A stretch of 64,000 nucleotides of DNA from Methylotenera sp. (lineage in GTDB: Bacteria; Pseudomonadota; Gammaproteobacteria; Burkholderiales; Methylophilaceae). Below are positions 35,601-60,038 of this stretch, piece by piece; within the stretch, counting starts at the first letter, position 1, and each line of letters begins with the position of its first letter. The stretch is from NCBI GenBank assembly GCA_005777825.1, contig SXLB01000018.1, positions 10,550 to 74,549 on the forward strand. The letters run 5' to 3'. Position numbers and translations under genes: made by a program. The notes under the pieces were generated by a model. The model searched no databases, was not told the origin of the DNA, and worked only from the letters and a program-made list of their open reading frames with translations.

Positions 35601-35604
35601 GATT

Positions 35605-37092: not shown

Positions 37093-37126
37093 GAATGCCT
37101 ATGCCCAATCGCTATGCCGCAGGCGA

Positions 37127-38866: not shown

Positions 38867-38903
38867 TTAAACACAACTTTCATTAAACATTAAAAATACT
38901 TTA

Positions 38904-38916
38904 TAAGCTATTGATT
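38904..38916 (-). promoter_or_regulatory. IHF consensus match between glgC and the GH57 gene
   Basis: Minus strand AATCAA-TAGC-TTA equals WATCAANNNNTTR. Confidence 0.35.
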
Positions 38917-38922
38917 TATAGA

Positions 38923-40215: not shown

Positions 40216-40404
40216 GCTATCCTCCTGAAGTTTGATGAACATCAACCAAACCCCTTGTGCTATATGGTTTAATTAAACATCCACGCATTCTGTTCTACAT
40301 TATAATCAGCTTAAAGCACTATAATCTAGTTAAAACACGGCTAAACAAGCAAATAAAGCCAAATAGTCGCAATTAATTTTGCAATGGAATTAGGGAGAGG
40401 CATC

Positions 40405-42687: not shown

Positions 42688-42713
42688 CTTTAAATTAAAG
42701 CACGACTAAATAA

Positions 42714-44366
42714 ATGGCTGCACTAACAACTTTACCGGTATGGCAAGCGCTATGCCGCCATCAGAAAACCATCGCGGCAAGCAATATGCGCGATTTATTT
42801 GCTCAAGATACCAATCGCTTCGATAAATTCAGCTTTCAGCTTGATGATATGTTGTTTGATTTCTCTAAACACCGTATCAACGATGAAACGCTACCTTTAC
42901 TCATGCAGTTAGCCAGAGAAGCGCAGCTAGAAAATTGGCGTGACCGTATGTTCGCCGGCGAGAAAATCAATATCACGGAAAATCGGGCTGTGTTGCACAC
43001 GGCCTTACGCAACCGTAGCAATCGCCCAGTATTGGTCGATGGCGTGGACGTCATGCCTGAGGTCAATGCAGTGTTAGCGCAAATGCGCGATTTTTCAGAA
43101 AAAGTCCGTTCAGGTGCGTGGTTAGGTTACACCGGCAAACGCATCACCGACGTGGTTAACATAGGCATAGGCGGATCAGACCTAGGCCCAGTCATGGTTT
43201 GCGATGCATTAAAACCTTACGCCAGCGCAGATTTGGCGGTGCATTTTGTTTCAAACATCGACGGCGCCCACTTGATGCGCGCCTTAGAAAAATGCCAGCC
43301 TGAAACCACCCTATTTATCGTGGCGTCTAAAACATTCACTACTCAAGAAACCATGACCAACGCCATATCAGCGCGCACCTGGTTTTTAAACAAGGCGCAG
43401 GATAATGCCCACGTGGCCAAACACTTCGTTGCCCTCTCCACTAACGCCAAGGCGGTCACCGACTTTGGTATCGATCAAGCGAATATGTTTGCTTTTTGGG
43501 ATTGGGTGGGCGGTCGTTATTCCTTGTGGTCGGCCATAGGCTTATCCATTGCCTTGTACGTAGGCATGGATCATTTCGAAGCCTTATTAAGCGGTGCACA
43601 TGAAATGGATAGACATTTTCAAACTGCGCCGTTAGAAGAGAATATGCCGGTGATCATGGCGCTGATAGGGATTTGGTACAACAACTTCTTTGACATCGCC
43701 ACCCACGCGATATTGCCTTACGATCAAGGCATGTCACGCTTCCCCGCTTACTTGCAGCAAGCCGATATGGAAAGCAACGGTAAATTCATTTGCCGCGATG
43801 GCAAGCGCATACAATACAAAACTGGCCCAGTGATTTGGGGCGAAGCCGGCACCAATGGTCAGCACGCTTTTTATCAATTGATACACCAAGGCACGCAAGT
43901 CGTGCCCTGCGATTTTTTAATGCCTGTGCACAGCCACTACGCCATAGGCAAACACGGTTACGCCCACCACAAAATTTTACTGGCAAACTTCCTTGCCCAA
44001 ACCCAAGCCTTAATGCTGGGCAAGACAACGGATGAAGCGCGTTTGGAATTGCAAGAACAAGGCTTGAATAGTGCGGAAGTAGAACACCTATTGCCGCATA
44101 AGGTGTTTGAAGGCAATCGCCCAAGCACGTCCATTTTGTTCGATAAACTTACACCCAATACGCTAGGCAAACTGATCGCCTTGTACGAGCATAAAATATT
44201 CGTCCAAGGCATGATTTGGGACATCAATAGCTACGATCAATGGGGTGTGGAATACGGCAAGCAAATTGCCCAAGAAATTCTACCCTTATTAACCAGTGAT
44301 GGCGTTGTCACAAGCTTTGACAGCTCCACCAATGGCTTAATTAATTACACCAAATCACACAAATAA
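42714..44366 (+). CDS. pgi: Glucose-6-phosphate isomerase
   Basis: '[11 protein letters not shown]', 'SKTFTTQET', '[12 protein letters not shown]', '[10 protein letters not shown]', 'DQWGVEYGK'. Confidence 0.98.
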
Positions 44367-44367: not shown

Positions 44368-45324
44368 TTAATGCAACTTTGGTTCGCCGCTGCTCGTCAG
44401 CTGACGCGCTATACCCTCGCCTAAGCTGGCACTAGCGCTAGCACCTATGCGCTTAGCTAAGCGGCTAGCAAAGTCATCTTGGTAAGTGAAGTCGACTATG
44501 TCTTCTTGTTTGATCACCTCACGCGCCACAAAATCGGTACTGCCTATGGCATCCGCCAAACCCATCTTAACGCTTTGCTCACCGCTCCAAAATAAGCCAC
44601 TAAAGGTTTCCGGTGTTTCTTTCAAACGCTGACCACGGCCTTCACGCACCACGGTTTTAAATTGCTCGTGGATTTCATTAAGCATGGTTTGCGCGTAGGC
44701 TTGGTGTTTAGGATTGACGGGCGAGAACGGGTCTAACATGGCCTTGTTTTCGCCGGCCGTCATCAAGCGGCGCTCCACCCCTACTTTTTTCATTAGCTCG
44801 GTAAAGCCATAACCGTCCATCAACACCCCTATGGAGCCAACTATGCTGGCTTTATCCACGTATATCCTATCCGCCGCCGCGGCAATGTAATAACCACCCG
44901 AAGCGCAAATGTCCTCCACCACCGCATACACCGGTATGGTCGGGTGCAAGCGTTTTTGCCGCTCAATTTCATCATTAATAATCCCGGCTTGCACCGGACT
45001 GCCGCCTGGGCTATTGATGCGCAAGATAATGCCCTTGGTGTGTTTGTCTTCGTAGGCATCGTGCAAGCTACCAATAAAACTGTCGGCATTGACTTCGCCA
45101 TCGGCTTCAATGACACCGGCCACTTCAATCAGAGCCGTGTGATCACTAAGCGTTTTCTTGCTCTCACCTAGCCAGCCCATGGCTAAAAACAACAAGAAAA
45201 ACAAATACGCGTACATCAATATTTTAAAAAACACCCCCCAACGCCTAGCCGATTTTTGCTCGTTTAAGGCGGCGCTAGCCAATTTTTCTATGGCATCACG
45301 TTGCCAATTATTCTCTTCTGACAT
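44368..45324 (-). CDS. S49 family signal peptide peptidase (SppA-like)
   Basis: 'RINSPGGSP', 'CASGGYYIA', 'VGSIGV'. Confidence 0.92.
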   Translation of the reverse strand: MSEENNWQRDAIEKLASAALNEQKSARRWGVFFKILMYAYLFFLLFLAMGWLGESKKTLSDHTALIEVAGVIEADGEVNADSFIGSLHDAYEDKHTKGIILRINSPGGSPVQAGIINDEIERQKRLHPTIPVYAVVEDICASGGYYIAAAADRIYVDKASIVGSIGVLMDGYGFTELMKKVGVERRLMTAGENKAMLDPFSPVNPKHQAYAQTMLNEIHEQFKTVVREGRGQRLKETPETFSGLFWSGEQSVKMGLADAIGSTDFVAREVIKQEDIVDFTYQDDFASRLAKRIGASASASLGEGIARQLTSSGEPKLH

Positions 45325-45347
45325 GGTATTTTTCTCTAAAATTAGGG

Positions 45348-45707
45348 TTAAGAAATGGCACTAATATCTATGCTAATGATTTGATTTTGTTCAGTAAGCG
45401 GTATGGCGCGCAAACGCTTCCCCTTGCATGGCCCCATCACGCAATAACCGTTATCGGGTCGATAATGGGCACCGTGTGTGGCGCAAATTAAATGCTCTTT
45501 TTCAGCAGTAAAAAACTCGCCTTCGTTCCAATCAAGTTCCACGGCCACATGCGCACATTGATTGACATAGGCATAAGCTAGTCCGTGATAACGAACAACA
45601 AAGCCGCTGGCAAATTCACCCAGCGCAGGCAGTGCAAAACGCAAGCCTTTACCCTGCTCTTGCACATCTTCACTTTTAAACACTACGCACGGGCTAGGAT
45701 CACTCAT
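45348..45707 (-). CDS. Rieske 2Fe-2S domain protein
   Basis: 'NQCAH' and 'CATHGA.Y....G.C..GPC' Rieske ligands. Confidence 0.9.
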   Translation of the reverse strand: MSDPSPCVVFKSEDVQEQGKGLRFALPALGEFASGFVVRYHGLAYAYVNQCAHVAVELDWNEGEFFTAEKEHLICATHGAHYRPDNGYCVMGPCKGKRLRAIPLTEQNQIISIDISAIS

Positions 45708-46362
45708 CTTCTCCCTCCAACAACCATGCACTTAAACTAGCAAAATCAGCGAATTGGCGAAGCGGCTCAAGGTGTTGCCATTGTTCGGCTTTTTGCGCAC
45801 CGTAAGTAACGCCCACCGCACTCACGCCCGCATTTTTAGCCATTTGCAAATCGTAACTGGTGTCACCTATCATCAGTGTGCGCTCAGGCAACACCACTAA
45901 AGCTTCCATCAATTCGTGCAGCATTTGTGGATGGGGTTTAGAAAAACACTCGTCCACAGTGCGAGTGGCGTGAAAATAATGCGTCAAGGCACAGTGCTGC
46001 AAAGCCAGATTCAATCCTCGCCTACCCTTGCCAGTGGCGACGGCTAATTTAAAGCCGCGTTTATTAAGCGTCTTAATGGTATCCACCGCGCCAGCGAACA
46101 ATGGGATGCGGCTTTCTCCGGCGTAATAATTATTGCTGTATTGCGTGGCCAAGGCCTGCGCCTGTGCGGCCGGTATGTCGCCGTATAAGGCATGAATGGC
46201 TTCACGCAAACCCAAACCTATAATGCTACTGGCCTCGCTGCTGGTCAATGTCGGTAACCCTACCTGCGCCGCTGCATTAAGCAAGGCCTCAGCAATCATG
46301 CCAGTGGAGTCAGCTAAAGTGCCATCCCAATCCCAAACGATTAAATCAAATTGCTTTTGCAT
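45700..46362 (-). CDS. HAD-IA family hydrolase (phosphoglycolate phosphatase-like)
   Basis: 'WDWDGTL.DS', 'VATGKGR', 'SKPHP', 'MIGDT.YD'; usual neighbour of rluC. Confidence 0.9.
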   Translation of the reverse strand: MQKQFDLIVWDWDGTLADSTGMIAEALLNAAAQVGLPTLTSSEASSIIGLGLREAIHALYGDIPAAQAQALATQYSNNYYAGESRIPLFAGAVDTIKTLNKRGFKLAVATGKGRRGLNLALQHCALTHYFHATRTVDECFSKPHPQMLHELMEALVVLPERTLMIGDTSYDLQMAKNAGVSAVGVTYGAQKAEQWQHLEPLRQFADFASLSAWLLEGEDE

Positions 46363-46420
46363 GCCTTACGGTACTTTCTTAATTCTTGGTTTCTAATTTA
46401 ATGGTTTCTAAACTATTGTT

Positions 46421-47449
46421 TTATTCACTAATGGCTTCTAATTTTTGTAAAAATTGATCTAATTCGACCGGCAAAGGCGCAATCAATTCCAGCTTAGCTT
46501 GCGTCAGTGGGTGATTGATTTTAGTGATCGCGGAATGCAAAAACATGCGCTTCAAGCCATGTTTTTGCAGGGCTTTATTGGCAGCAAAATCGCCGTATTT
46601 ATCGTCCCCAACAATCACAAAGCCCAAATGGGCCAACTGCACGCGCAACTGATGCGTGCGTCCAGTCACCAATTGCGCTTCCAATAAGCTAAACGGCCCC
46701 AATTGCGGATGGTTAAAGTTTTTAACTAATTTAAATAGCGTTTCCGAGCTTAGGCGCTCATTGTATTTATCCTTGCTCGCGTCCGTCACTACATTGACGC
46801 GTCGCTCCCCATTGGGCAATAGATAGCGCTGCAAGTCCAACACCACACGCTTTTTCTTTTCCAACCAGGTGCCTTGCACCAACATTAGGTAGCGCTTATC
46901 CGTTTGGTTGTGGCGTATGGCTTCGTGCAAGGCAACCAGCGCACTGCGTTTTTTTGCCAACATCAGCACGCCCGACGTTTCCCTATCCAGGCGGTGGACT
47001 AATTCCAAAAATTTGGCCTTAGGGCGCTCCAATCGCATTTGCTCAATGACCCCACGGCTGATGCCGCTTCCACCATGCACTGCAAAGCCCGCCGGTTTAT
47101 CAATGACCAAGAGCGCATCGTCTTCAAACAAAATGGCATCAGCAAACTTCGACACACTGGGTGGCTTTATCTCAGGCGTATCAATCTGCTTGGCGCGCGT
47201 GGGCGGTATGCGCACCACGTCGCCTAAACTTAAGCGAAAATCCGCAGCTATACGTTTTTTATTTACTCGCACTTCACCACTGCGCAAGATACGATAAACA
47301 TGGCTCTTAGGCACCCCTTTTAAGGTTTTAGCCAAAAAGTTATCCACTCGCTGCCCCTCGCTTGCCTCGTCAACCGTTAGAAAAGCCGCTGCCAATGCAC
47401 TAACATGCTCCGAACTGGATGGCTGATTTTGTGGACTGATAGTGTTCAT
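46421..47449 (-). CDS. rluC: 23S rRNA pseudouridine synthase RluC
   Basis: S4 domain 'GQRVDNFL...GVPKS.VYRILRSGEVRVN', 'VHRLDRETSG', 'TGRTHQLRV'; divergent from rne. Confidence 0.93.
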   Translation of the reverse strand: MNTISPQNQPSSSEHVSALAAAFLTVDEASEGQRVDNFLAKTLKGVPKSHVYRILRSGEVRVNKKRIAADFRLSLGDVVRIPPTRAKQIDTPEIKPPSVSKFADAILFEDDALLVIDKPAGFAVHGGSGISRGVIEQMRLERPKAKFLELVHRLDRETSGVLMLAKKRSALVALHEAIRHNQTDKRYLMLVQGTWLEKKKRVVLDLQRYLLPNGERRVNVVTDASKDKYNERLSSETLFKLVKNFNHPQLGPFSLLEAQLVTGRTHQLRVQLAHLGFVIVGDDKYGDFAANKALQKHGLKRMFLHSAITKINHPLTQAKLELIAPLPVELDQFLQKLEAISE

Positions 47450-47452
47450 TCT

Positions 47453-47481
47453 TTGCTTAAATGTTAGTAGTAGCCTATACT
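47453..47481 (+). promoter_or_regulatory. Putative sigma70 promoter of rne
   Basis: TTGCTT (47453-58), 17 nt, TATACT (47476-81). Confidence 0.55.
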
Positions 47482-47487
47482 TACGCC

Positions 47488-48077
47488 ATTATCAATTAAT
47501 TAAAGATTAATTGATGTAGAAAATACACTTAAATGGCAATAAGTTAGCCTGCACCGCACGCTGACCTGGCTTTTTAAAGTGGAAACAGATACTTGGTTAA
47601 CGCCGCTCGCCATATTATAAAGTAGCAGCAAGTAAAAATTAGCGCTCAAGCCGCCGCAGACAAATAAACATAAAGCGCGACTTAACGTGGTAGTCCGATT
47701 TGGCGTATCGCTAAATAGGCATTTACTGAAGATAGAATTTTAACGAATTTACGCCACTACGGCATAAATTTTAATGATTAGTTTAATTTAACGACAGTCA
47801 GAAACTTTGTAAGTTACTGCCTACCATTGAAACACATGAAATAGAAACCGGTTTAATACAGCCCTTGCACTTGTCAATGCGGCTATAACTTGTTGATTAC
47901 TCATATTTTTAGATCAGAGCGACTTTTTCGCGGCTAGTCTTTATAATTCAAAATCGTTAGATTTCACCAACGCGCACATGTAACGCGCCTTCAGTAGTTT
48001 GGCCAATCCCAATGGCACCATCACCTTAATCTGCCTTCAACACTCAGTCTGCGCCTTGAGCCCTACAGGAGCAAACA
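47488..48077 (+). promoter_or_regulatory. Long structured rne 5' leader (putative autoregulatory UTR)
   Basis: 628-bp ORF-free gap; perfect 10-bp inverted repeat ATCAATTAAT-taaag-ATTAATTGAT (47491-47515) and further hairpins at about 47698-47717 and 47746-47770. Confidence 0.5.
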
Positions 48078-50606
48078 ATGAAACGCATGTTATTTAATGC
48101 AACGCAATCTGAAGAATTACGCGTTGCCATCGTAGACGGTCAAAAACTGATCGATTTAGACATAGAACACGCTGGCAAAGAGCAGCGCAAAAGCAATATT
48201 TACAAGGGTGTCATCACCCGCATAGAACCATCACTGGAAGCGGCATTTGTCGACTACGGCATGGACAGGCACGGCTTTTTACCTTTCAAAGAAGTCGCAC
48301 GCAGCTACTTCAAAGAAGGCGCAGACAGCAAAGCACGCATACAAGACGCCTTAAAAGAAGGCCAAGAAATCATCGTGCAGGTGGACAAAGACGAGCGTGG
48401 CAACAAAGGCGCAGCCCTTACTACGTTCATCTCACTGGCCGGTCGTTATTTAGTGCTTATGCCTAATAACCCACGTGGCGGTGGCGTATCACGCCGCATT
48501 GAAGGCGAAGACAGAGACGAGTTACGCGATGTATTAGCACAATTGGAAGTGCCAAAAGGCATGAGCATCATTGCGCGCACCGCGGGTATTGGTCGCAATG
48601 CCGAAGAGCTGCAATGGGATTTAAATTACTTGACGCAGTTATGGGCAGCCATTGATGGCGCCTCTACCATGCAAAGTGGCGCTTACCTAATCTACCAAGA
48701 AGGCAGCTTAGTGATACGCGCCATACGCGATTACTTTAGCGCCGACATCGGTGAAATACTAATCGACACACCGGACATACACGAACAAGCCTTGCAATTC
48801 ATGAGCCACGTCATGCCTGGTAATGTCGGCCGCGTGAAATTGTACCAAGATGAAATCCCTCTATTCACGCGCTTCCAAATTGAACACCAAATTGAATCGG
48901 CTTTCTCACGCGAAGTGCGCTTGCCCTCAGGCGGCGCGATTGTTATCGACCACACCGAGGCTTTGGTTTCAGTAGACGTCAACTCTGGCCGCGCCACGCG
49001 CGGTAGCGATATCGAACACACCGCCTTCAACACCAATATGGAAGCCGCCGAAGAAGTGGCACGCCAATTACGCTTGCGCGACCTTGGCGGCTTGGTGGTG
49101 ATAGACTTTATTGACATGGAAAGCCAACGCAATCAACGTGAAGTTGAAAATGCACTTCGTGAAGCCTTGCATCACGATCGTGCGCGCGTGCAAACCGGTA
49201 AAATTTCCCGCTTTGGTTTGCTTGAATTGTCACGCCAACGCTTGCGCCCAAGCTTAGGTGAAACCAATCACATCCCTTGCCCACGATGCAATGGTACCGG
49301 TCACATCCGCGGCATTGAATCCACCGCCTTGCACATATTGCGCATCACGCAAGAAGATGCCATGAAAGACAACAGCGCAATCATACAAGTGCAGTTGCCA
49401 GTTGAAGTGGCAACTTTCCTATTAAACGAAAAACGTGCTGACATACATGCCATAGAACAACGCATGGGCGTTGAAGTGGTGTTAATACCTAATATTCACC
49501 TGGAAACACCCAATTACAACATCGTGCGTGTTAAACACGATGACGTGACCGAAGAAACCAGTCGCGCCAGCTACAAATTAGTGGAGTTGCCAACTGAAAC
49601 GTCTTACATCCCTACAGCAGAACAAACTGCCAAGGAAGTCAGACCAGTGGCCGCAGTGCGAGGCATCACCCCAGCAGCACCGGCACCAATTGTGGCGGAA
49701 AAATCTGCAGCGGCACCGATCTTATCCTTGCTAGGCCGCATCAAAAACTTATTCAGTAGCGCATCGGCCAGCAGCAAACAAAAAACCGAAGCGGAGAAAA
49801 ACGAAGAATTCAACCGCGATCGCAACCGCAACAACCGCAATCGCAACCGCAATCGAAATGACCGCAACAAAAACGCGCCACAAGATAGGCAAAATCGACC
49901 GAATGACGGCAAGCCACAAGAAGCCAGAACGCAGGAACAACGTCCAGCTAAGCCGCAACAGCCACGTCAACCTCAACATCAACAGGCTAATGGCAATGCG
50001 GAAAACAACCCTAGCGAGACCACGCCCAATAGCGAAAGAACCGGTGGTCGTCGTAACCGCAATAACCGTCGCGGCCGTCGCGATCGTGGTGAGGGCGCGC
50101 AAACCGATGTTAACCGTCCTTTTGTCGCCAACGACTCCGTAGAAGCCGTGGCCACAACTGAGATGCCGGTAGCCAACACGGTAGAAAACGTGGTGGTGAA
50201 TACACCGGCTGCGGCATCTGCAACGGTAAGCGAGACAACAAAACCGGCCAAAAAAGCCAGACCAGAAAAAGCCGCCAAAATCGACGCCGAACTAGTCCTT
50301 GTTGACAGGGCAGCAACCGCAACAACAGCAACGAGCGAGCCACTTGTCAGTGACAAAGCCGTTGCGGCCAACACTAAAGCCGACAACAAACGCCCTGCTC
50401 GTGCTCGCAAAGCCGCTGCTAAGCCAGTTGATTTAGCTGCGGCTGGCTTGCAATTGGTGGAAACCAAAGCGGATGCACCCAAAGCCAATCCGGTGGTGAA
50501 TGAGCCTAAAGCGCGTGCGCCTAGGAAGCCAGCCGCATGGCAAAAAGAGACAAAAACAGAAAGCATCAATGAGCCTATGGTGATGGTGGAAACGCAGAAC
50601 AAATAA
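48078..50606 (+). CDS. rne: Ribonuclease E
   Basis: '[21 protein letters not shown]', S1 domain, 'DVNSGRAT', 'DFIDM', 'CPRC.GTG'; Arg/Asn-rich disordered C-terminal region. Confidence 0.98.
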
Positions 50607-50648
50607 GCGCTCTGCATTAGCTCAGCCAGTATCCGCTGAAGCAAAATG

Positions 50649-50679
50649 AAAAAAGGCCATGATGAATCATGGCCTTTTT
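50649..50679. terminator. Bidirectional intrinsic terminator between rne and crcB
   Basis: AAAAAA-GGCCATGA-tgaa-TCATGGCC-TTTTT. Confidence 0.9.
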
Positions 50680-50716
50680 CTTGTCTGCGCGAAATCGATT
50701 GCGCATAAGAAAATAA

Positions 50717-51100
50717 TTAGCTTCTAAGCATGTGTACCGTCAATAAACCCAGGCCTGTCATCGCTAAAGAGCCAAGCACATGCAAGGCTATATGGGTGCC
50801 TGCCCATGCATACTGACCTTTAGTAAGCAAGGTCATGGCTTCACCAGAAAAACTAGAAAAAGTCGTTAAGCCGCCCAATAAGCCGGTAATTAGAAAAAGA
50901 CGGGTCTCGGCACTGATGGATGGGTTAAAGGTAAAGCATGCCATGAATAACCCCATAAAATAGCTGCCTATTAAATTAGCCAGCAAGGTGCCTATCGGCA
51001 AGGCCAATAAACTACTATTAAACATCAAGGCTAATAACCACCTAAACCAAGCACCGATTGCAGCACCAAGGCCGACCAGCACAAAACCCTGCAAACTCAT
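50717..51100 (-). CDS. crcB: Fluoride efflux channel CrcB/FluC
   Basis: 'GAAIGAWFRW', 'PIGTLLANLIGS', 'TGLLGGLTTFSSFS.E'. Confidence 0.93.
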   Translation of the reverse strand: MSLQGFVLVGLGAAIGAWFRWLLALMFNSSLLALPIGTLLANLIGSYFMGLFMACFTFNPSISAETRLFLITGLLGGLTTFSSFSGEAMTLLTKGQYAWAGTHIALHVLGSLAMTGLGLLTVHMLRS

Positions 51101-51183
51101 GCCCACCCTCCAAAATCATTATTAGCCAGCCGAACTTTATACAATATAATAATGCATCCCTACCACATTCAAGAAAGCTTATT

Positions 51184-52659
51184 TTGCGGGTATTGTTTAG
51201 CACTTCCGAAGCGTTCCCTCTAATAAAAACCGGCGGCCTAGCTGACGTAAGCGGCTCCCTGCCGCAGGCATTGCAAAAATTAGGCGTGGACATCCGCCTT
51301 CTTATCCCTGGCTATCCTGCTGTATTAAATCAGCTTAGCAATCTAAAAGTGATCGCTAAGTTAGATAAGCTACCCATGATCATGCACGCCGATTTGATGA
51401 TGGGCGAATTGGCCGACAGCAAGCTCAGAGTGATGGTCATCAAAGCCGCTAACCTGTATGAGCGAGACGGCGGTCCGTATGCCGATGCAAACGGACTGGA
51501 GTGGCTAGATAACGCATTGCGCTTTGGCATACTGTCCAAAGTGGCGGCCATTTTAAGCAGCAGCCAATCGCCTGTACCCGACTGGCATCCAGACATCGTG
51601 CATTGCAACGACTGGCAAACCGGACTCACCCCGGCCTACATGAAGCTGCTCGAGCACGGCACAGCAAAATCCATTATCAGCTTGCATAATATGGCATTCC
51701 AAGGCTGCTTTGCACCCGCCTGGCTGACCACCCTCGCCCTACCGCCTAGTCATTTTGCCATTGATGGCTTTGAATACCATGGCCAGTTGTCTTTTCTAAA
51801 AGCCGGTATTTTCTACGCCGATGGCATCACCACGGTAAGCCCAAGCTACGCCAAAGAAATACAAACAGCGGAATTTGGTTTTGGCCTAGAAGGCTTACTA
51901 AGCTTACGCGGCAGTGAAATTAAGGGAATACTAAACGGCATAGAAACAGAACAATGGAACCCTAAAACCGATCCGCATTTAATTAAAAATTACAGCGCCA
52001 AGGCCTTAGCCGGTAAGAAACAAGTTAAATTAGCCTTGCAAAAAAAATTAGGGCTACAAATTGATGCAAGCGCACCATTATTAGGCGTAGTCAGTCGACT
52101 CACCCACCAAAAAGGCTTGGACATGCTGCTGCCTATCAGTCAGCAATTAATCGATGCAGGCTGCCAATTGGTCGTACTGGGTAGCGGCGATCCGACCTTA
52201 GAAGACGCCTTTAGCAAGCTGGCTCAAAACAATCCCAAACAAGTCAGTGTGACCATATCGTATAACGAAGCCCTGTCGCACCAAATCATGGCAGGATGCG
52301 ATATATTCATCATGCCTTCGCGTTTTGAACCTTGCGGTCTAAACCAAATGTATGGCTTAGCTTATGGCACTCCCCCGGTAGTCAACGCTACGGGTGGCTT
52401 AGCTGACACGGTGGTGGACACCAATCTAATTAGCTTTAAAAATAAAAAGGCCAATGGCTTTGTCATGAGCGAAGCCAGCTCAACCAGCTTACTCAAAGCC
52501 ATCAAACAAGCCTTAAATGTTTACAAAAACGATGCAGCCGCGTGGAAGCAAATTCAAATCAACGGTATGAACCTAGACTTAAGTTGGGATAAAAGTGCCT
52601 TGGCGTATTTGGCTGCATATAAAGCCTTGCTCATGCCTAGCGCCGAGAAAAATGACTGA
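51184..52659 (+). CDS. glgA: Glycogen synthase
   Basis: 'SE.FPLIKTGGLADV', 'HCNDWQT', 'HNMAFQG', 'VSRLTHQKG', 'PSRFEPCGL.QM'; probable TTG start at 51184. Confidence 0.96.
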   Translation: MRVLFSTSEAFPLIKTGGLADVSGSLPQALQKLGVDIRLLIPGYPAVLNQLSNLKVIAKLDKLPMIMHADLMMGELADSKLRVMVIKAANLYERDGGPYADANGLEWLDNALRFGILSKVAAILSSSQSPVPDWHPDIVHCNDWQTGLTPAYMKLLEHGTAKSIISLHNMAFQGCFAPAWLTTLALPPSHFAIDGFEYHGQLSFLKAGIFYADGITTVSPSYAKEIQTAEFGFGLEGLLSLRGSEIKGILNGIETEQWNPKTDPHLIKNYSAKALAGKKQVKLALQKKLGLQIDASAPLLGVVSRLTHQKGLDMLLPISQQLIDAGCQLVVLGSGDPTLEDAFSKLAQNNPKQVSVTISYNEALSHQIMAGCDIFIMPSRFEPCGLNQMYGLAYGTPPVVNATGGLADTVVDTNLISFKNKKANGFVMSEASSTSLLKAIKQALNVYKNDAAAWKQIQINGMNLDLSWDKSALAYLAAYKALLMPSAEKND

Positions 52660-52679
52660 TTTTTAAGGGGACAGTAAAC

Positions 52680-52696
52680 TTGGCACGCTAAATGCT
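52680..52696 (+). promoter_or_regulatory. sigma54-type promoter in the glgA-orn intergenic region
   Basis: TTGGCACG-CTAA-ATGCT, with GG and GC separated by exactly 10 nt. Confidence 0.6.
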
Positions 52697-52701
52697 TAAG
52701 T

Positions 52702-52768
52702 AATAACAAGCTTCTCCAAAGCTGTTATTCTCCTCCTCCGGGGCGCCTTGACGGGCGCCCTCTTTTTT
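52702..52768 (+). ncRNA. Candidate small regulatory RNA with anti-SD (CUCC) motifs
   Basis: Hairpin AAUAAC-a-AGCU-ucuccaa-AGCU-GUUAUU, single-stranded CUCCUCCUCC, then a GC-rich terminator; sigma54 motif immediately upstream. Confidence 0.55.
52740..52768 (+). terminator. Intrinsic terminator (+ strand)
   Basis: GGGCGCC-ttgacg-GGCGCCC-tc-TTTTTT. Confidence 0.85.
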
Positions 52769-52773
52769 CTCGT

Positions 52774-53346
52774 TTATTTAACGATGAAATGTTCGCGGTA
52801 GTATTTTAATTCGTCTATGGATTCGTAGATGTCGGCCAAGGCCTCATGTTTGCTGGCTTTTTTAAAGCCCGAGTATATTTCCGGCTTCCATCGACGCGCT
52901 AACTCTTTAAACACACTGACATCCAGATTGCGGTAGTGAAAATACTTTTCCAAATCGGGCATATAGCGCGCCATGAAGCGGCGGTCCTGGCATATGGAAT
53001 TGCCACACATGGGCGATTTACCAACTGGCACCCAATTTTTCAAAAATGCCAGCATTTGCAAACTGGCTTGCTCCTCATCCAAGGTCGAGTCTTTTACTTT
53101 TTGGATCAAGCCTGAACGACCGTGCGTGCCTTTATTCCAGGCATCCATACCCTCTAGAACGGCATCAGATTGGTGTATAACCAAGACCGGCGATTCGGCC
53201 AGGACGTTTAATTCGGCATCGGTGACCACGGCCGCCAATTCCAATATGCGGTCTGAATCGGGCAGCAGACCACTCATCTCCATGTCCAACCAAATTAAAT
53301 TGTTCTGATTAGTACTACTTGCTATTTCCGCCATCATGATTTCCAT
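52774..53346 (-). CDS. orn: Oligoribonuclease
   Basis: '[11 protein letters not shown]', '[11 protein letters not shown]', 'HYRNLDVS', 'H.AL.DI.ESI.EL.YYR'; true start may be a few codons downstream. Confidence 0.96.
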
Positions 53347-53429
53347 TAAAATGTATGTTTTATACCAATATCAGTGAACCATACGCCTGCTTATGCTTCA
53401 CAATGGCATCATATTAACCGAACTTGACC

Positions 53430-54680
53430 ATGACCATGACCTTTACCCTTACATTTATTAGCTTAGTGATTGCCTCAACGATGGTGCGTCTTTGGCTTGC
53501 AGGTAGGCACATCCGCCACGTGCAACAACACCGAGATCATGTACCCACTGCTTTCAGCGCCACCATCACACTGGATGCGCACCAGAAAGCGGCTGACTAC
53601 ACGGCAGCTAAATCCAAATTAGGTTTAAGCGAGGGCTTGGTGCAGACCCTGCTGTTATTAGCCTTAACCTTAGGTGGGGGCTTACAAAGCATGGATAATT
53701 TTTGGCAAGCGTTGTTTGCGGATCAAGCCATCATACGAGGCGTAGCGGTAATTTGCAGCGCGATGTTGTTAACCAGCTTAATTGATTTGCCTTTTGATTA
53801 TTACAAAACATTTGTCATAGACGAAAAATTTGGCTTTAACAAAATGACGGTTCCCATGTTCATCAATGACTTAATCAAACACGGTCTATTAGGGCTGGCT
53901 TTAGGCGGCCCCATTTTATTGCTAGCGCTTTGGTTGATGCAAGGAGCCGGCGCCTATTGGTGGCTGTATTTATGGTTTGCCTGGAGTGCCTTTAACCTCA
54001 TTATGCTAGCGGTTTACCCCAGCTTCATCGCGCCATTATTTAATAAATTTAGCCCCTTGCATGACGAGCAATTAAAAACACGTATCGAATCGCTATTGAC
54101 TAAGTGCGGCTTTAAATCGCAAGGCCTGTTTGTCATGGACGGCTCAACTCGCAGCAGTCATGGCAATGCCTATTTCACCGGCTTTGGTGCATCCAAACGG
54201 GTGGTGTTCTTTGATACCTTGCTAGCACGCTTAAACACCGATGAAATAGAGTCGGTTTTGGCCCACGAATTAGGCCACTTTAAACACCATCACGTTATCA
54301 AACGCATAGCCATGCTGTTCTCTGTAAGCTTTATAGGCTTAGCATTATTGGGCTGGCTCATGCAGCAGCCCTGGTTTTATACTGGCCTAGGCGTGCAAAA
54401 CGCTAGCAATTACATGGCTTTAATGCTGTTCTTGTTGGTTTCACCGGTATTTTTATTTTTATTGCGCCCGGCCATGGCCAGTTACTCACGTAAAAATGAA
54501 TTTGAGGCCGACGCGTATGCGGCTAAACAAGCCAGCGCTAAAGATTTGGTGAGTGCCTTGGTTAAACTATACCGTGACAATGCCGCTACCTTGACACCAG
54601 ATCCCTTGCATTCTGCATTTTATGACTCGCATCCGCCAGCCAGTCTAAGGATAGCCAAGCTGGCAGCGTACAGCAGCTAA
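53430..54680 (+). CDS. M48 family (Ste24-like) membrane zinc metallopeptidase
   Basis: 'RSSHGNAYFTGFG', 'AHELGHF', 'EFEADAYA', 'SHPP...RI'. Confidence 0.93.
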   Translation: MTMTFTLTFISLVIASTMVRLWLAGRHIRHVQQHRDHVPTAFSATITLDAHQKAADYTAAKSKLGLSEGLVQTLLLLALTLGGGLQSMDNFWQALFADQAIIRGVAVICSAMLLTSLIDLPFDYYKTFVIDEKFGFNKMTVPMFINDLIKHGLLGLALGGPILLLALWLMQGAGAYWWLYLWFAWSAFNLIMLAVYPSFIAPLFNKFSPLHDEQLKTRIESLLTKCGFKSQGLFVMDGSTRSSHGNAYFTGFGASKRVVFFDTLLARLNTDEIESVLAHELGHFKHHHVIKRIAMLFSVSFIGLALLGWLMQQPWFYTGLGVQNASNYMALMLFLLVSPVFLFLLRPAMASYSRKNEFEADAYAAKQASAKDLVSALVKLYRDNAATLTPDPLHSAFYDSHPPASLRIAKLAAYSS

Positions 54681-54745
54681 TTTTTAGCGCATAATGCCAG
54701 CACTTAAATTTAAATTGTACAGACCTTAATCTGACCGCTAGCCTT

Positions 54746-55648
54746 TTGACCGACACCATCTCTACTCAGACTAAATTCATTGCGCCATTGCAAGGCACCG
54801 TGGTGGCAGCATACGGCAAACGCTATCAAATTGAATTGCCAGATAAAAAACGCATCAGCTGCGTGACCCGTGGCAAAAAAACCGATCTAGCCTGTGGCGA
54901 CAGAGTCAATCTGCAACTCACCGACAAGCACGAGGGCGTGATCGATAGCACTCTGCCGCGCCAGACCTTGCTGTACCGCAGCAATGCCTTTAAGAGCAAA
55001 ATGCTGGCGGCCAATGTAACGCAAATCATCATAGTTTTAGCCACGCAGCCTAGCTTTTACGAAGCCTTGTTAAACCGCTGCTTGATTGCGGCCGAAGCGG
55101 CGCATATTAAACCGCTCATAGTGCTTAATAAATGCGACTTGGAGGACAGCTCGCAAGCCAAGCAAAAACTTGGCTTGTACAGCGCTTTGGGTTATCAGGT
55201 GCTGACACTGTCAGCCAAAGAGGATATTTCCAGCCTAAGGCCTTATTTGCAAGGGGAAGCCAGCATTTTAGTAGGCCAATCCGGCATGGGTAAATCCACT
55301 ATGATTAATGCCTTGTTACCCGAAGAAGCGGTGCGTACCAGAGAAGTCAGCATGAGCCTAGACAGCGGCAAACACACCACCACCGCCGCCCATTTATACC
55401 ATTTGGACGCGCACAGCCAGCTGATAGATTCGCCCGGCTTACAAGAGTTTGGCTTACACCATCTCAACACGGATGAATTAGAACACGCGTTTATTGAATT
55501 TAGGCCACATTTAGGTTTATGCCGATTCAGCAACTGCAAACACACGCAAGAACCAGACTGCGCGATTAAACAAGCTATGCAAGATGGCAAGATCAGCCAA
55601 GAAAGATTAGCCATTTACCAGTTATTGCGAACAGAAATCGAGCATTAA
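54746..55648 (+). CDS. rsgA: Ribosome small subunit-dependent GTPase A
   Basis: 'NKCDL', 'GQSGMGKST', 'GKHTTT', 'DSPG', zinc finger 'CRFSNCKH..EPDC'. Confidence 0.95.
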   Translation: MTDTISTQTKFIAPLQGTVVAAYGKRYQIELPDKKRISCVTRGKKTDLACGDRVNLQLTDKHEGVIDSTLPRQTLLYRSNAFKSKMLAANVTQIIIVLATQPSFYEALLNRCLIAAEAAHIKPLIVLNKCDLEDSSQAKQKLGLYSALGYQVLTLSAKEDISSLRPYLQGEASILVGQSGMGKSTMINALLPEEAVRTREVSMSLDSGKHTTTAAHLYHLDAHSQLIDSPGLQEFGLHHLNTDELEHAFIEFRPHLGLCRFSNCKHTQEPDCAIKQAMQDGKISQERLAIYQLLRTEIEH

Positions 55649-55723
55649 GCCAGCTTGGTCGCAGGCTAAAAAATGCCTGTAGATGGCGTATAATCGGTCC
55701 ATTCATTTTTCAAGTAGCAGATC

Positions 55724-56164
55724 ATGCAAATTACCACTCGCCTAGAATTCGATGCCGGCCACCGCATTCCCAGCCATAAAAGCCAATGTAAGAATTTGCA
55801 TGGTCACCGCTATGCCATTGAAATAACCTTGTCTGGCGACATCATTAGTCAAGCTGGCGCATCCGAGAATGGCATGGTGATGGATTTTTCAGAGGTAAAA
55901 GCGATTGCTAAATCTGCCGTGGTGGATGTTTGGGATCATGCTTTCCTGGTCTATCAAGACGATGCTGACGTGCTTAATTTTTTAAACGGCCTGACTAACC
56001 ATAAAACCGTGGTTTTCCCTACCGTACCAACGGCTGAAAACATGGCCAATGAAGCATTTAAAATTCTGAAGAATCGCTACTTAGACAGCTATGGCACGCA
56101 CTTAAAATTAGAAAAAGTGCGCTTGTACGAAACCCCCAATAATTGGGCCGATGCCTTAGGCTAG
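55724..56164 (+). CDS. queD: 6-carboxytetrahydropterin synthase
   Basis: 'EFDAGHRI..H..QC.NLHGH', 'GMVMDF', 'PTAEN', 'YETPN'. Confidence 0.92.
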   Translation: MQITTRLEFDAGHRIPSHKSQCKNLHGHRYAIEITLSGDIISQAGASENGMVMDFSEVKAIAKSAVVDVWDHAFLVYQDDADVLNFLNGLTNHKTVVFPTVPTAENMANEAFKILKNRYLDSYGTHLKLEKVRLYETPNNWADALG

Positions 56165-57241
56165 CTCTTCACCGCGCTCGGCATAATGCTTGGCTACCCA
56201 ATGACGGTAATCGCCACTGGTGACGTTATTTACCCAGTCCTGGTTTGCCAAATACCAATCCACCGTTTTTTCTATCCCCGTATCAAAACTTTCTGCCGGC
56301 TTCCAGCCTAATTCTTGGTGCAACTTGCTGGCATCAATGGCGTAGCGTTGATCATGACCCAACCTGTCTTCCACGAAGCTAATTTGCTCGGCATACGATT
56401 TGCCATCTGATCGCGGTTTTTTGCTATCCAATATACGGCATAAGGTTTTAACCACCTCTATATTAGCCATCTCGTTCCAACCGCCGACGTTGTATACCTC
56501 GCCCACTTTACCAGCCTCCAAAACCCTGCGTATTGCCGCACAATGGTCGGTTACATAAAGCCAATCGCGTATCTGTTGACCGCTACCGTAAATTGGCAAG
56601 GGTTTTCCAGTTAAGGCGTTGTGTATCACCAAAGGAATTAATTTTTCTGGGAAATGGTGTGGTCCATAATTGTTGGAACAATTGGTCGTGAGCGTAGGGA
56701 GCCCATAGGTGTGATGGTAAGCCCGGACCAGGTGATCGGATGCCGCCTTGGAGGCAGAATATGGGCTATTCGGAGCATAGGCATGCTGCTCAGTAAAAGC
56801 CGCCGCATCAGGCATTAAGGATCCGTATACCTCATCGGTGGAGACATGCAAAAAACGCCATGCCTGACGGTCGACTGTGCTTAATTGTGTCCAATAGGCC
56901 CGCACGGCTTCCAATAAATGAAAAGTGCCCACCACATTGGTTTGAATGAAATCTTCAGGACCGTGTATGGACCTGTCCACATGGCTTTCGGCGGCAAAAT
57001 TAACGATGGCAGAAGGTTGATAGTCTTGCAGCAATTTGCTCACTAGTGCCTGATCGCCTATGTCGCCATGCACGAAAACATGCTGTGGATTATGTTGCAC
57101 CGCCGTTAAATTTTCCAAATTCCCGGCATATGTCAACTTGTCCAAATTCACCACTCGGCCTAATCCCAAGCGCAACCATTCAAGCACGAAATTAGCACCA
57201 ATAAAACCCGCCCCACCGGTTACCAAAATTGTTTTAGTCAT
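56156..57241 (-). CDS. rfbB: dTDP-glucose 4,6-dehydratase
   Basis: 'VTGGAGFIG', 'DKLTYAGN', 'AAESHVDRSI', 'HVSTDEVYG', 'YSASK', 'GHDQRYAID'. Confidence 0.96.
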   Translation of the reverse strand: MTKTILVTGGAGFIGANFVLEWLRLGLGRVVNLDKLTYAGNLENLTAVQHNPQHVFVHGDIGDQALVSKLLQDYQPSAIVNFAAESHVDRSIHGPEDFIQTNVVGTFHLLEAVRAYWTQLSTVDRQAWRFLHVSTDEVYGSLMPDAAAFTEQHAYAPNSPYSASKAASDHLVRAYHHTYGLPTLTTNCSNNYGPHHFPEKLIPLVIHNALTGKPLPIYGSGQQIRDWLYVTDHCAAIRRVLEAGKVGEVYNVGGWNEMANIEVVKTLCRILDSKKPRSDGKSYAEQISFVEDRLGHDQRYAIDASKLHQELGWKPAESFDTGIEKTVDWYLANQDWVNNVTSGDYRHWVAKHYAERGEELA

Positions 57242-57254
57242 GCAGATTACTTTC

Positions 57255-57965
57255 TTATTTTTCAATTGTTGATGATTCCAGGGCAGCCCATAAACAATCC
57301 CCGGATTTATTCAATGCTGCCAGATAAGCCTCATGGGCCTCTAGTTCAGTGGCATTTGCTAACATAACGATGCCGGCTTGATTAAATGCAGCTTTAGGTT
57401 CAACCGCCTGCGTTGTTTGAGGCTGGTCCATGCTGATCATCAAACTGTCTTGCCCGCGCGTCATGGCCATGTACACATCGGCCAACAATTCCGCATCCAA
57501 CAAGGCGCCGTGTAAGGTGCGTTTAGAGTTGTCTATGCCAAAATGCCGACACAAAGCATCCAAACTATTACGCTGACCTGGGCGCATTTCTTTGGCTATT
57601 TTAAGCGTATCGGTCACCCTAGCGACGATGCTCTCCAAGGGTTTTTGCTCGATCAAACCCAGCTCACAATTTAAAAAGCCCACGTCAAAGGGTGCGTTAT
57701 GCATAATCAGCTCGGCATCGGCAATGAAATCCAGCAACTCGTTAACAATGTCAGGAAAGCGCGGCTTGTCCTGCAAAAATTCCAAAGAAATACCGTGCAC
57801 CTCTTGTGCGCCTTGGTCTATTTCACGATCGGGATTGAGGTAATAATGAAAATGCTGTTTGGTTAATCGGCGGTTGACCACCTCAACCGCAGCAATCTCT
57901 ATTACCCTATGGCCTTGTGCATGATACAAACCGGTGGTTTCCGTATCCAAAAAGATTTGTCTCAT
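57255..57965 (-). CDS. dnaQ: DNA polymerase III epsilon subunit
   Basis: 'LDTETTG', 'HNAPFD', 'LDALC', 'HGALLDA', 'MTRGQ'. Confidence 0.96.
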
Positions 57966-58420
57966 GATGCTGCCTCCTGTAAAACCTGCTCCACGCCCTT
58001 ATTAGCCAAACTGTCAGCCCGCTCATTACCAACATTGCCAGCGTGCCCCTTAACCCATATCCACTGCACCGTATGCTGCTGGGCCAGGCCATCTAAAATG
58101 CGCCATAAATCATCGTTTTTCACCGGCTTTTTATCTGCAGTGCGCCAATTCCTGGCTTTCCAGCCGACTATCCATTCGGAAATGCCTTTCTGCACGTAAA
58201 CCGAATCCGTGTAAACCATTGCATGGCAGCTGCGATTTAACGCCTCAAGGGCGCGTATCACCGCAGTTAACTCCATGCGGTTATTGGTGGTGAGCAATTC
58301 GCCACCAAACAGTTCTTTTTCTTGGCCAGCGTAACGAATCCAAGCACCCCAGCCCCCAGGACCTGGGTTGCCCTTGCATGCCCCATCGGCGTAAATTTCC
58401 ACTGCTTTAGTCGTGCTCAT
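57962..58420 (-). CDS. rnhA: Ribonuclease HI
   Basis: '[14 protein letters not shown]', 'TTNNRMEL', 'TDS.YV', 'WVKGHAG..GNERAD.LA'. Confidence 0.97.
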
Positions 58421-59229
58421 GGTGTTTTTTCTAATGTCTTTCTGGATAAACGGTTTAATTTGTCTCGTGACTTAGTTGGCCTGCCAATGGATTTGGGTCT
58501 AGCTGTCAGTAAATTGGTGGCGCCCGATTGTTTCCAATTTGGTTTAATCGGCGTCATGCCGGGCACGCGTTTTTTTGCCACGATAAAATAGACCCCGGCC
58601 AATCTCGAAAAGGCATGCTGGCCTAGCTTATCCATAAATAACAGGCGCTTATGCCAAGCAATATTTTCAAACGGCGGGACATGGCAACAGCTACGCACGT
58701 TTACAACCTCAAAACCCAGCAAGGCTAACCAATCTTTTAAGCGATTCAAGCCTATCAAGCGAGCATGCCATGGGTAATTTAACTGCTTACAAAACAGTTT
58801 CTTTATAAACGCACACGCGCCCCAGGCGCTGATAGGATTGAAGCCGGAAATAATTAAATGTCCATCTGGCATCATTACGCGAGCCGCCTCACGCAAGGTT
58901 TGGTGTGGCCTATCACTGAACTCCAGCCTGTGCGGCAAAAGCAATAAATCCAAACTCATTTCAGCAAAAGGTAAAAAATCATCACTGCACAACACGTTAG
59001 CCTGGCATTCGCCATTCACCATGCCACCGGCTTCAATAGCAAAGGCTTTATAGCGGTTGGGCATGCGCGAGTTGGTCAACAAGTCTAGCGGCATAGACCC
59101 GACCTGTAGCGCATTAAAGCCAAATAAATCGGATACTGCTTGGTCAAACAAGGGTTTTTCGCTGGCTTGCAAATACTGGCCTGCTGTGGATTTGAACCAA
59201 TCTTGTATGGGCGCCGCGACTATTGACAT
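58417..59229 (-). CDS. Class I SAM-dependent methyltransferase (YafS-like)
   Basis: Conserved position between gloB and rnhA; 'LPH.LEF...PHQ.LREA.RV', 'GFNP.S.WG', 'RLKDWL.LLGF'. Confidence 0.85.
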
Positions 59230-59258
59230 TTAACCGTATAGAACAAATGATAGTGGGT

Positions 59259-60038
59259 ATGCATCATAATGTTCAAATTATACCCATTCCAGCATTTAAG
59301 GATAACTATATCTGGCTCATGCACAACGGCCAACAAGCCGTAGCCGTTGACCCAGGGGATGCCCAGCCAGTCATACAAACGCTCAAGCAACTCAATCTTA
59401 ACCTAAGCGGCATACTCATTACCCACCACCACCAAGATCACATTGCCGGGGTAACCGAATTGCTAAAAGTCTATCCTGACATAGGCATTTATGCGCCAAA
59501 ACTAGAGGATTACTCGTTTGCGCACACACCAGTCGATGACGAACAGGAGATACAGCTGACCGACTTGGGGCTAAGTTTTAGCGTCATGCACTTGCCAGGG
59601 CACACCTTAGGCCATGTGGCCTACTACACTGAAAACAAGTTAGGCGATAAATGGCTGCTTTGTGGGGACACCTTGTTTGGTGCCGGCTGCGGCCGTTTAT
59701 TTGAAGGCACGCCAGCCCAAATGCACCACTCGCTAAAACGCTTAGCTGCTTTAGCCGGCAGCACTCAAGTCTATTGCAGCCACGAATACACATTACGCAA
59801 CATTGACTTTGCCTTGAGCCTGGAGCCAAATAACCCCACATTGCAACAACGTAAGTTAGACACACAGGCGCTGCGCGACAAAGGCATGGCCAGCCTGCCA
59901 TCCAACATCGAATTGGAACGCGCGACCAATCCTTTTTTACGTTGCCATATCGGCAGCATTCAAATTAGCAGTGGCTTAAACCTAGCCGATGAGGTGGCTG
60001 TTTTTAGCCGAATAAGAGAATTAAGAAATGTATATTAA
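59259..60038 (+). CDS. gloB: Hydroxyacylglutathione hydrolase (glyoxalase II)
   Basis: 'IPAFKDNYIW', 'THHHQDH', 'PGHTLGH', 'GDTLF.AGCGRLFEG', 'HEYT', 'TNPFLR'. Confidence 0.95.
   Translation: MHHNVQIIPIPAFKDNYIWLMHNGQQAVAVDPGDAQPVIQTLKQLNLNLSGILITHHHQDHIAGVTELLKVYPDIGIYAPKLEDYSFAHTPVDDEQEIQLTDLGLSFSVMHLPGHTLGHVAYYTENKLGDKWLLCGDTLFGAGCGRLFEGTPAQMHHSLKRLAALAGSTQVYCSHEYTLRNIDFALSLEPNNPTLQQRKLDTQALRDKGMASLPSNIELERATNPFLRCHIGSIQISSGLNLADEVAVFSRIRELRNVY

Follow-up and report, generated by a model that had tools for sequence, protein, structure and literature searches.

A conserved small RNA unit with a sigma-54 promoter motif between glgA and orn in the Methylophilaceae and its predicted link to NtrC

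Between the glycogen synthase gene glgA and the oligoribonuclease gene orn, the window (the whole 64,000-nt stretch of Methylotenera DNA analysed here) carries a conserved unit that is not a product of chance. A sigma-54-type promoter motif stands ahead of a predicted double-hairpin RNA, which very probably is a real RNA gene; this gene is found family-wide in the Methylophilaceae and apparently has not been described before. Comparison of the glgA and orn sequences shows that silent codon positions preserve NtrC-like palindromes, whose presence follows that of the promoter. Taken together, these patterns make it reasonably probable that the unit encodes an anti-Shine-Dalgarno repressor sRNA which is controlled by NtrC and sigma-54 in nitrogen limitation, with enhancers embedded in the neighbouring genes.

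Results

Layout of the glgA–orn interval

The window belongs to a draft genome (G000; 1.36 Mb, 83% complete). The initial annotation, made from the letters of the window, had proposed a promoter, a hairpin, a CU-rich tract and a terminator ending in U6, all of which were found where it had placed them:

51058 to 52659, plus strand: glgA, glycogen synthase (ORF from the first TTG; NF001899, 597.8 bits against a cut-off of 459)
52774 to 53346, minus strand: orn, oligoribonuclease, convergent to glgA and the unit
52681 to 52697, plus strand: sigma-54 -24/-12 promoter motif (GG at 52682-83, GC at 52694-95)
52707 to 52768, plus strand: predicted small RNA of about 62 nt, double hairpin, two CU motifs
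52709 to 52723, plus strand: 5′ hairpin, 5-bp stem, loop CUCCA
52728 to 52739, plus strand: single-stranded CU tract UUCUCCUCCUCC, an anti-Shine-Dalgarno-like predicted seed with the core UCUCCUCC
52740 to 52768, plus strand: intrinsic terminator (stem 52740-52761, U6 at 52763-52768)

The true start of glgA is probably later than the first TTG. The promoter motif reads TTGGCACG-N4-ATGCT from 52680, about 20 nt past the glgA stop (52659). Sigma-54 start sites are spaced 12 nt from the C of the -12 element; by this count we infer a +1 at about 52707, and the RNA would therefore be about 62 nt long. Across the 1.36-Mb genome there are four matches to the strict promoter pattern and a single match each to the tract and to the loop word. 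The U run is absent from the minus strand at the terminator. A small-protein reading of the unit was rejected since it has no start codon, and a tRNA/tmRNA search of window positions 45000-60000 found none. Elsewhere in the window, a PilB/GspE-type ATPase (31994-34368, minus strand) is split into overlapping ORFs (32842-34368 and 31994-33076), perhaps by a frameshift or an assembly error.

Fold and covariation

The region 52700-52770 folds with a z-score of -4.05, none of 200 shuffled sequences being as stable, and the CU tract is unpaired in the predicted fold. Pairing in a MAFFT alignment was 84.0% compared to 78.7% when shuffled, and 9 of the 13 pairs changed on both sides. In the model-fitted alignment (A4), which leans towards the covariance model and whose pairing figures are biased that way, the values were 94.6% and 12 of 13. 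Two-sided changes affect four of the five stem pairs of the 5′ hairpin and, in A4, all eight of the terminator. The loop letters are conserved in 62-70 of 73 rows and those of the core UCUCCUCC in 65-73 of 73. Loop and tract thus keep their sequence while the stems vary, which is the pattern expected of a base-pairing seed. The hairpin proposed earlier is confirmed, but conservation favours a 5-bp stem with the loop CUCCA over the proposed loop UCUCCAA. The unit furthermore shows marks of Hfq-type sRNAs, namely a U-tail terminator, an unpaired conserved seed and an hfq gene in the genome. An anti-Shine-Dalgarno repressor is the likely nature of the predicted RNA.

Conservation across the Methylophilaceae

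To avoid selecting on the motif, 80 loci were fetched by their Orn protein alone. Of these, 72 carry the box and, behind it, the RNA no more than 700 nt from the orn end; among the eight others, six lack glgA beside orn, one ends after 31 nt and one carries an insertion. Promoter letters outside the search pattern were also kept (A before TGC in 71 of 72, T after TGC in all 72). A covariance model (R1), built from the RNA alone with the promoter excluded, gave matches in 114 of 149 genomes of the family, spread over 26 of 29 genera, with one strong match in G000 and one to three matches per genome in the family. Forty of these matches were fetched over genera and score ranges: 28 have a box within 45 nt, which in 23 of the 28 lies exactly 24 nt above the model start. 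The promoter accompanies 27 of 28 R1 matches linked to glgA or orn, in distant genera, and 17 of 20 further fetched matches. The conservation in relatives that the initial annotation had named as a check was observed for promoter, CU motifs and terminator in most of the family.

The three misses all belong to genus g17, in which the RNA is kept intact at L177 and L204-L206 and the -24/-12 box has decayed. A conserved inverted repeat is located about 70-110 nt above the RNA in this genus (L177, L204-L206, L254-L258) and outlasts the decayed box in some genomes; a rewiring to another regulator is possible there. At L249 (G013), a degenerate remnant of the RNA lies between glgA and orn, and the promoter box is absent.

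In the small-genome genera, R1 matched none of ten g23 genomes and one of 18 g27 genomes, and this sole g27 match (L159) was rejected as spurious, the promoter being absent. glgA is also mostly missing from these genera (present in 1 of 10 and 2 of 18, respectively). The streamlined genera have kept rpoN, ntrC and hfq without the RNA; rpoN is present in 147 of 149 family genomes, and co-occurrence therefore does not discriminate. All five genomes without the RNA that were examined for hfq carry it. When the model search was extended to the whole order, only weak matches appeared outside the family; they come from 12 genomes, do not exceed 36.4 bits and mostly lack a sigma-54 box.

Sigma-54 promoter and independence from glgA

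The box has the conserved form GG-N10-GC at a fixed spacing to the RNA, and G000 encodes both rpoN and an enhancer-binding protein. Other sigma-54 boxes in these loci are not conserved (72 at the RNA, 4 in the next best bin). With high probability, the motif is a sigma-54 promoter. Boxes from the strict and a looser list for G000 also precede a torF-glnK-amtB-like operon, glnA and a nitrate/nitrite cluster, as well as a glycogen-phosphorylase-like and an aconitase-B-like ORF, all named by recognition from their translations. Three boxes, C11:22389 (minus), C60:28809 (plus) and C44:11317 (minus), are associated with the glycogen-phosphorylase-like ORF, the aconitase-B-like ORF and, in one case, no long ORF directly behind; none of the three is near an NtrC site, and the glgP-like gene has a 14.9-bit NtrC-like site inside.

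In 6 of 25 genera, each represented by one locus, the glgA stop and the box are separated by an intrinsic terminator. Moreover, the unit occurs without glgA upstream at L004, L150 and L162, and in genus g36 the RNA is found in seven of nine genomes and glgA in four of nine. Together with the conservation and with rpoN, hfq and ntrC in the genome, these observations support the earlier proposal of an independent sigma-54-dependent RNA gene. The box follows glgA without an intervening terminator in 19 of 25 genera, including the window's; glgA read-through would stop at the RNA's own terminator there, and a mixed origin is therefore possible. The glgA mRNA of the window's lineage probably ends at this terminator too, so that part of the RNA may also derive from the 3′ end of glgA. 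No same-strand gene is located downstream of the unit. Of 22 expression runs, all of them contigs, four were examined, and contigs span the unit in three; since contigs are unable to show ends, strand or level, this is not evidence of expression. At several loci (L139, L140, L143, L145, L153, L164, L173, L199 and L209), a TGT(A/C)ACA-like word precedes the -24 box by 35-50 nt, in many cases right behind the glgA terminator.

NtrC-like sites inside glgA and orn

In glgA-linked loci, no NtrC-like site above background was detected within 400 nt upstream of the unit. An activator site at the usual 80-150 bp upstream is absent, and sites at about -400 to -630 in glgA are found instead; the same scan revealed a conserved NtrC-like site 570-640 bp upstream, inside glgA. 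The initial annotation had seen no clear enhancer; this is correct as far as the 400 nt upstream are concerned, but the wider locus does contain NtrC-like sites:

52052 to 52068, no strand assigned: NtrC-like site A in glgA, codons 294-299 (counted from 51172), 8.8 bits
52071 to 52087, no strand assigned: NtrC-like site B in glgA, codons 300-306, 14.1 bits, some 600 bp upstream of the promoter
52277 to 52293, no strand assigned: third NtrC-like site in glgA, around codon 369, 11.8 bits, with weaker support

The matrix was derived in the analysis from glnA upstream regions only (28 of 30 loci, 53 sites); the consensus labels for NtrC and sigma-54 follow the textbook motifs. Only 17 of 1,358,630 genome positions score at least 14.1 bits. 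Of 29 tandem pairs, the A/B pair ranks fifth; the four ahead of it comprise two at glnA and one each at an amt-like gene and at C69. The codon-369 site reaches 11.5 bits in only four loci, and a site at orn codon 57 that is carried in other genera scores only 6.8 bits in the window.

We compared silent sites over 113 four-fold-degenerate columns in 121 sequences of glgA. When these columns are ordered by constraint, the third bases of Gly305, Gly294, Pro302, Ala301 and Ala299 take ranks 1, 2, 3, 6 and 11, and the constrained silent bases spell two GC-N11-GC palindromes; for Gly294, the third base is G in 88 of 111 sequences versus a background of 11%. Both palindromes are intact in 78 of 121 glgA genes with the promoter versus 1 of 18 without it, a comparison confounded by kinship.

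Synonymous codons were then shuffled within each locus and the best site in the last 400 glgA codons plus orn was scored. The real site was significant at 73 of 120 promoter loci (mean 14.0 vs 7.6), which are kin, 82 of them sharing the codon-300 site, and at 1 of 18 loci without promoter (6.5 vs 5.7), this one (L251) being an extra glgA copy. Best sites also differ within genera, being 18.4, 14.7, 14.7 and 19.0 bits with the promoter versus 4.3, 1.0, 4.8 and 3.1 without it in g16, 14.1 and 14.1 versus 5.6 and 5.6 in g18, and 17.1 and 13.3 versus 8.5 in g13; g17 is mixed (0.0, 12.8 and 15.5 vs 8.1, 6.3, 12.1, 5.4 and 3.3). With one locus per genus, the representatives having been chosen after the scores were seen, the real matrix gave an excess of 6.26 bits and 16 of 25 genera, compared to -1.5 to +1.2 bits and at most three genera for 25 column-permuted matrices. 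As control coding sequences, glnA and amt-like genes gave 2 of 30 and 1 of 30, respectively.

Sites of at least 11.5 bits fall at glgA codons 157/164, 294/300, 369 and 414-437 and at orn codon 57, and their location in glgA or orn differs between genera. At L162, where glgA is absent, a 19.8-bit site is located in intergenic DNA at -155. Five of the 25 promoter-keeping genera (g4, g19, g30, g32 and g35) show no excess NtrC site in glgA or orn, and the best in-gene site of promoter locus L147 scores 0.0. Upstream coding sequence can hold activator sites, usually at a distance of 80-150 bp according to the accessible part of one report (PMC7910581); an enhancer distance of 400-1000 bp is unusual. 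Judging from these sequence patterns, we lean towards the in-gene enhancer being the working one.

Activators and the nitrogen link

G000 encodes two sigma-54 activators in addition to rpoN and hfq, and three complete close relatives also have just two. One is NtrC (TIGR01818, 704.7 bits against a cut-off of 558.6). The second sits behind a TonB-receptor-like ORF, a placement like that of Mfla_1254, for which the accessible text of PMC9988556 describes induction by lanthanum or lanthanides. This second activator is found in 96 of 149 genomes and in none of nine in genus g36, where seven of nine carry the RNA. In the drafts G062, G103 and G004 (92-96% complete), the promoter is kept with a single activator, which by-eye ORF inspection places as NtrC-like behind an NtrB-like ORF. 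NtrC thus appears to be the probable activator, and the nitrogen link that had been raised as a possibility gains support from the NtrC-like sites.

Candidate targets

Two ribosome-binding regions in the window were retained as candidates:

13920 to 13945, minus strand: candidate target 1, ribosome-binding region of an amt-family gene (gene 12729-13919), prediction only
40216 to 40226, minus strand: candidate target 2, glgC Shine-Dalgarno region, predicted duplex of 11 bp up to the start codon at 40215

A plain duplex ranking was discarded, being dominated by GC-rich noise and poor start calls. An accessibility-aware ranking within the own genome used custom gene calls that were restricted to ATG starts and left 50 leaders after filtering; glgC came first with a net -12.3 kcal/mol versus -9.9 for the next. 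Scoring across 55 genomes with their own RNA, from a set of 83 leaders of which some had no paired RNA, against a background of 150 leaders, all from G000, placed glgC in the top 5% in 10 of 55 genomes at a median of the 18.7th percentile. The median for glnA (top 5% in 1 of 23) was equal, and glgC as a family-wide target is unsupported. The amt-family leader had a median at the 6.3rd percentile and was in the top 5% in 8 of 20. Four amt-family leaders from g23, which has no RNA, lay at the 34th-74th percentile, and that of G050, where the RNA was not found, at the 5th; target scores largely track Shine-Dalgarno strength. Perfect-seed matches include slmA and nirB. Pattern scans for shared leaders revealed no recurring orthologue among the matches listed (150 of 311 and 150 of 687).

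The amt-family gene has a conserved NtrC-like pair at 14026-14072 (17.2 and 15.0 bits) and no sigma-54 motif. Of 30 genomes, 28 have strong NtrC pairs ahead of this gene and just two a sigma-54-like match; judging from these motifs, its promoter is probably NtrC-repressed. We consider the amt-family transporter gene the best candidate target and glgC a second candidate, in the window's clade, on these predictions; it is somewhat doubtful that either of them is correct.

In many genera, a conserved ACTATAAAT-like word immediately precedes the Shine-Dalgarno sequence of glgC (L422-L481). In the window, glgC lies in a glycogen cluster (34662-44366), some 7-17 kb away from glgA, together with ROK kinase-, malQ-, GH57-, glgB- and pgi-like ORFs; the names come from translations, and only glgC was profile-scanned.

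Related units elsewhere

A second, longer unit (about 100 nt) with a sigma-54 box and a CU tract was detected before a conserved ORF in g17 and g22. It has a canonical NtrC site about 90 bp upstream (184 bp in L197) and stands behind amtB in three of four loci read (L194, L197 and L165). Loci of this kind are L194 and L197 (g17), L165 and L168 (g22) and L157 (g39), none of which reaches an Rfam cut-off. Furthermore, a pattern of box, CUCCUCC and U-run occurs in 18 of 381 genomes of the order, 14 of them outside the family in eight families; the reversed pattern gave no match among the matches listed. At the loci of these 14 genomes (L362-L368 and L373-L379), we observed a sigma-54 box, a 5′ hairpin often opening with GAAGGC, a CCUCCUCC tract and a terminator. 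The out-of-family pattern RNAs remain below Rfam cut-offs, with suhB look-alike scores of 25.8-28.6 bits (about 26-29), and an NtrC site of at least 10 bits is nearby in only 3 of 14 genomes.

Discussion

Comparison with known RNAs

Anti-Shine-Dalgarno double-hairpin RNAs and NtrC/sigma-54-controlled sRNAs are both known kinds. We ran the Infernal/Rfam scan suggested in the initial annotation, and no family reached its gathering cut-off for the unit in the window, in the own genome or in relatives. In Rfam 15 and in the accessible full-text literature, which covers few subscription papers, we found no description of the unit's RNA; within the same scope, no regulatory sRNA of the Methylophilaceae was found. 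The accessible part of an Azoarcus RNA-seq study mentions uncharacterised small RNAs without detail (PMC8467165).

The closest parallels are considered here as far as the accessible parts of the cited papers describe them. The unit resembles the RF02278 toxic or double-hairpin RNAs (B. cenocepacia ncS03/05/27/62 and Bordetella S17S; PMC5688073; PMC11722255), which are 57-67 nt long with two hairpins and have, as here, two CU-rich unpaired stretches predicted to lie over ribosome-binding sites. The previously drawn parallel to the ‘toxic’ sRNAs therefore stands for the architecture but fails as family membership: by covariance model (cut-off 50 bits), RF02278 matched no locus (own genome at E≤10, five others at E≤1, the RNA in 18 loci). 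RF02278 RNAs are also marked by inhibiting growth when over-expressed and by three to five copies per genome; the unit has a single strong match in G000 and one to three in the family. Bordetella S17 differs in its sigma-A promoter and RNase E processing (PMC11722255), and sigma-54/NtrC control of RF02278-type RNAs is unreported in the accessible parts of these papers (PMC5688073; PMC11722255).

The best recurring Rfam resemblance is to RF00519 (SuhB/MmgR; 17.6, 24.3 and 27.2 bits, gathering score 41). MmgR (alpha-r8) is likewise a short anti-Shine-Dalgarno sRNA; it is described as NtrC-induced in nitrogen limitation, tied to the carbon-storage polymer PHB and preceded by predicted RpoD/RpoN motifs (PMC7143759), and our unit adjoins glycogen synthase. 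However, SuhB/MmgR is alphaproteobacterial, and the CUCCA-loop hairpin is unmatched in its alignment to the unit. In its predicted promoter logic, the unit is like Pseudomonas NrsZ, which needs RpoN and NtrBC and is induced in nitrogen limitation. NrsZ, in contrast, is a processed three-module RNA with a ACAGGCAG loop that activates rhlA, no anti-Shine-Dalgarno tract being apparent in the accessible text (PMC4253122), and Rfam gave no match to NrsZ at the unit. NcS25 of Burkholderia (RF02869) was the top Rfam match at the window (20.1 bits, E 0.55, gathering score 46) and shares a 5′ hairpin with a UCC loop, a CU tract and a terminator; it is reported as an 84-nt constitutive RNA, unchanged by nitrogen depletion, that represses a porin at the Shine-Dalgarno sequence (PMC10117139). 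Finally, Sinorhizobium NfeR1 (alpha-r14), also named in the initial annotation, shares anti-Shine-Dalgarno CCUCCUCCC seeds and induction by nitrogen stress, but is described as a three-loop RNA that is NtrC-repressed, lacks a sigma-54 signature and is Hfq-independent (PMC10746234). Since it is NtrC-repressed, sigma-70-type and Hfq-independent, it remains a loose comparison.

Proposed mechanism and alternative explanations

Under the preferred reading, sigma-54 polymerase would start at about 52707 after phosphorylated NtrC, bound to the pair at 52052-52087, had looped across about 600 bp and opened the promoter. In other genera, NtrC would use glgA codons 157/164 or 414-437, or orn codon 57, which is downstream. 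The RNA would bind Hfq through its U-tail, and its UCUCCUCC tract, perhaps helped by the CUCCA loop, would cover GGAG-type ribosome-binding sites. Since the amt-family promoter has an NtrC pair without a sigma-54 motif, NtrC would shut this gene at both levels. The placement recalls Myxococcus Nla28, for which the accessible literature describes enhancer-binding-protein sites inside genes; the sites described here differ in being 400-1000 bp away or downstream, in serving an RNA gene and in codons that vary by genus. As a fuller picture that we put forward tentatively, and consider possible rather than probable, the unit would be a nitrogen-starvation sRNA whose NtrC enhancer, written in silent codons of its neighbours, has moved repeatedly. 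It would be a branch of a hitherto undescribed clan, the CCUCCUCC RNAs driven by sigma-54 in at least eight more betaproteobacterial families, would close an NtrC feed-forward loop on an ammonium transporter and would tune glycogen synthesis via glgC.

The RNA might be sigma-54-driven and yet answer to an activator other than NtrC, or to NtrC without the in-gene sites, the palindromes acting otherwise, for example as a roadblock on glgA/orn transcription. The five of 25 genera without a site excess, the TGT(A/C)ACA-like word that several genera carry 45-50 nt above the promoter and the long distance of the sites from the promoter would all fit, as would the second activator in 96 of 149 genomes, placed like Mfla_1254 (lanthanide-induced in the accessible text of PMC9988556). 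We nevertheless regard this as unlikely, given that the sites are lost with the promoter (1 of 18; within-genus contrasts), that no other conserved sigma-54 motif is nearby, that the RNA persists where the second activator is absent and that glgA-less copies have intergenic NtrC sites. It is distinctly improbable that the unit is only a terminator or 3′ UTR of glgA, or an RNA cut from its mRNA, as GlnZ reportedly is from the glnA mRNA, with the box as a roadblock or insulator and not a start. Terminators separate glgA and box in 6 of 25 genera, the unit exists without upstream glgA (L004, L150 and L162; in g36, RNA in seven and glgA in four of nine genomes), the box-to-hairpin spacing is fixed and there is no downstream same-strand gene to insulate. 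What speaks for it is that the box of the window lies 21 nt behind the glgA stop and that no terminator intervenes, as is the case in 19 of 25 genera, that some g17 genomes have the RNA without the box, and that CT-rich motifs in sigma-54 promoters can insulate read-through, as stated in the accessible part of a preprint (bioRxiv 10.1101/086108).

The opposite strand offers a further alternative. The minus strand reads GGAG repeats, and the functional RNA might be transcribed from it at the 3′ end of orn, its GGA-rich loops serving as a sponge for CsrA/RsmA; alternatively, the RNA of the plus strand could itself be a sponge for another RNA, for which the lack of a strong family-wide mRNA target among our results could speak. 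We consider this very improbable indeed: a search of five genomes, complete or nearly so, found no csrA, the promoter and the U-run belong to the plus strand, plus-strand G-U pairs would be A-C mismatches on the minus strand, and the minus strand folds less well (z -2.2 vs -2.6 over the same span).

Implications

If NtrC and sigma-54 do control the unit as an anti-Shine-Dalgarno repressor, it would provide a testable link from nitrogen status to translation in an abundant family of freshwater methylotrophs. It would also show, with a clarity unusual for a natural system, how long-range enhancers of bacteria can be maintained in coding sequence by codon choice and can turn over between genes. 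The prediction of NtrC regulons would be affected, as scans limited to intergenic regions would miss such sites, and the finding would moreover bear on what synonymous recoding can break.
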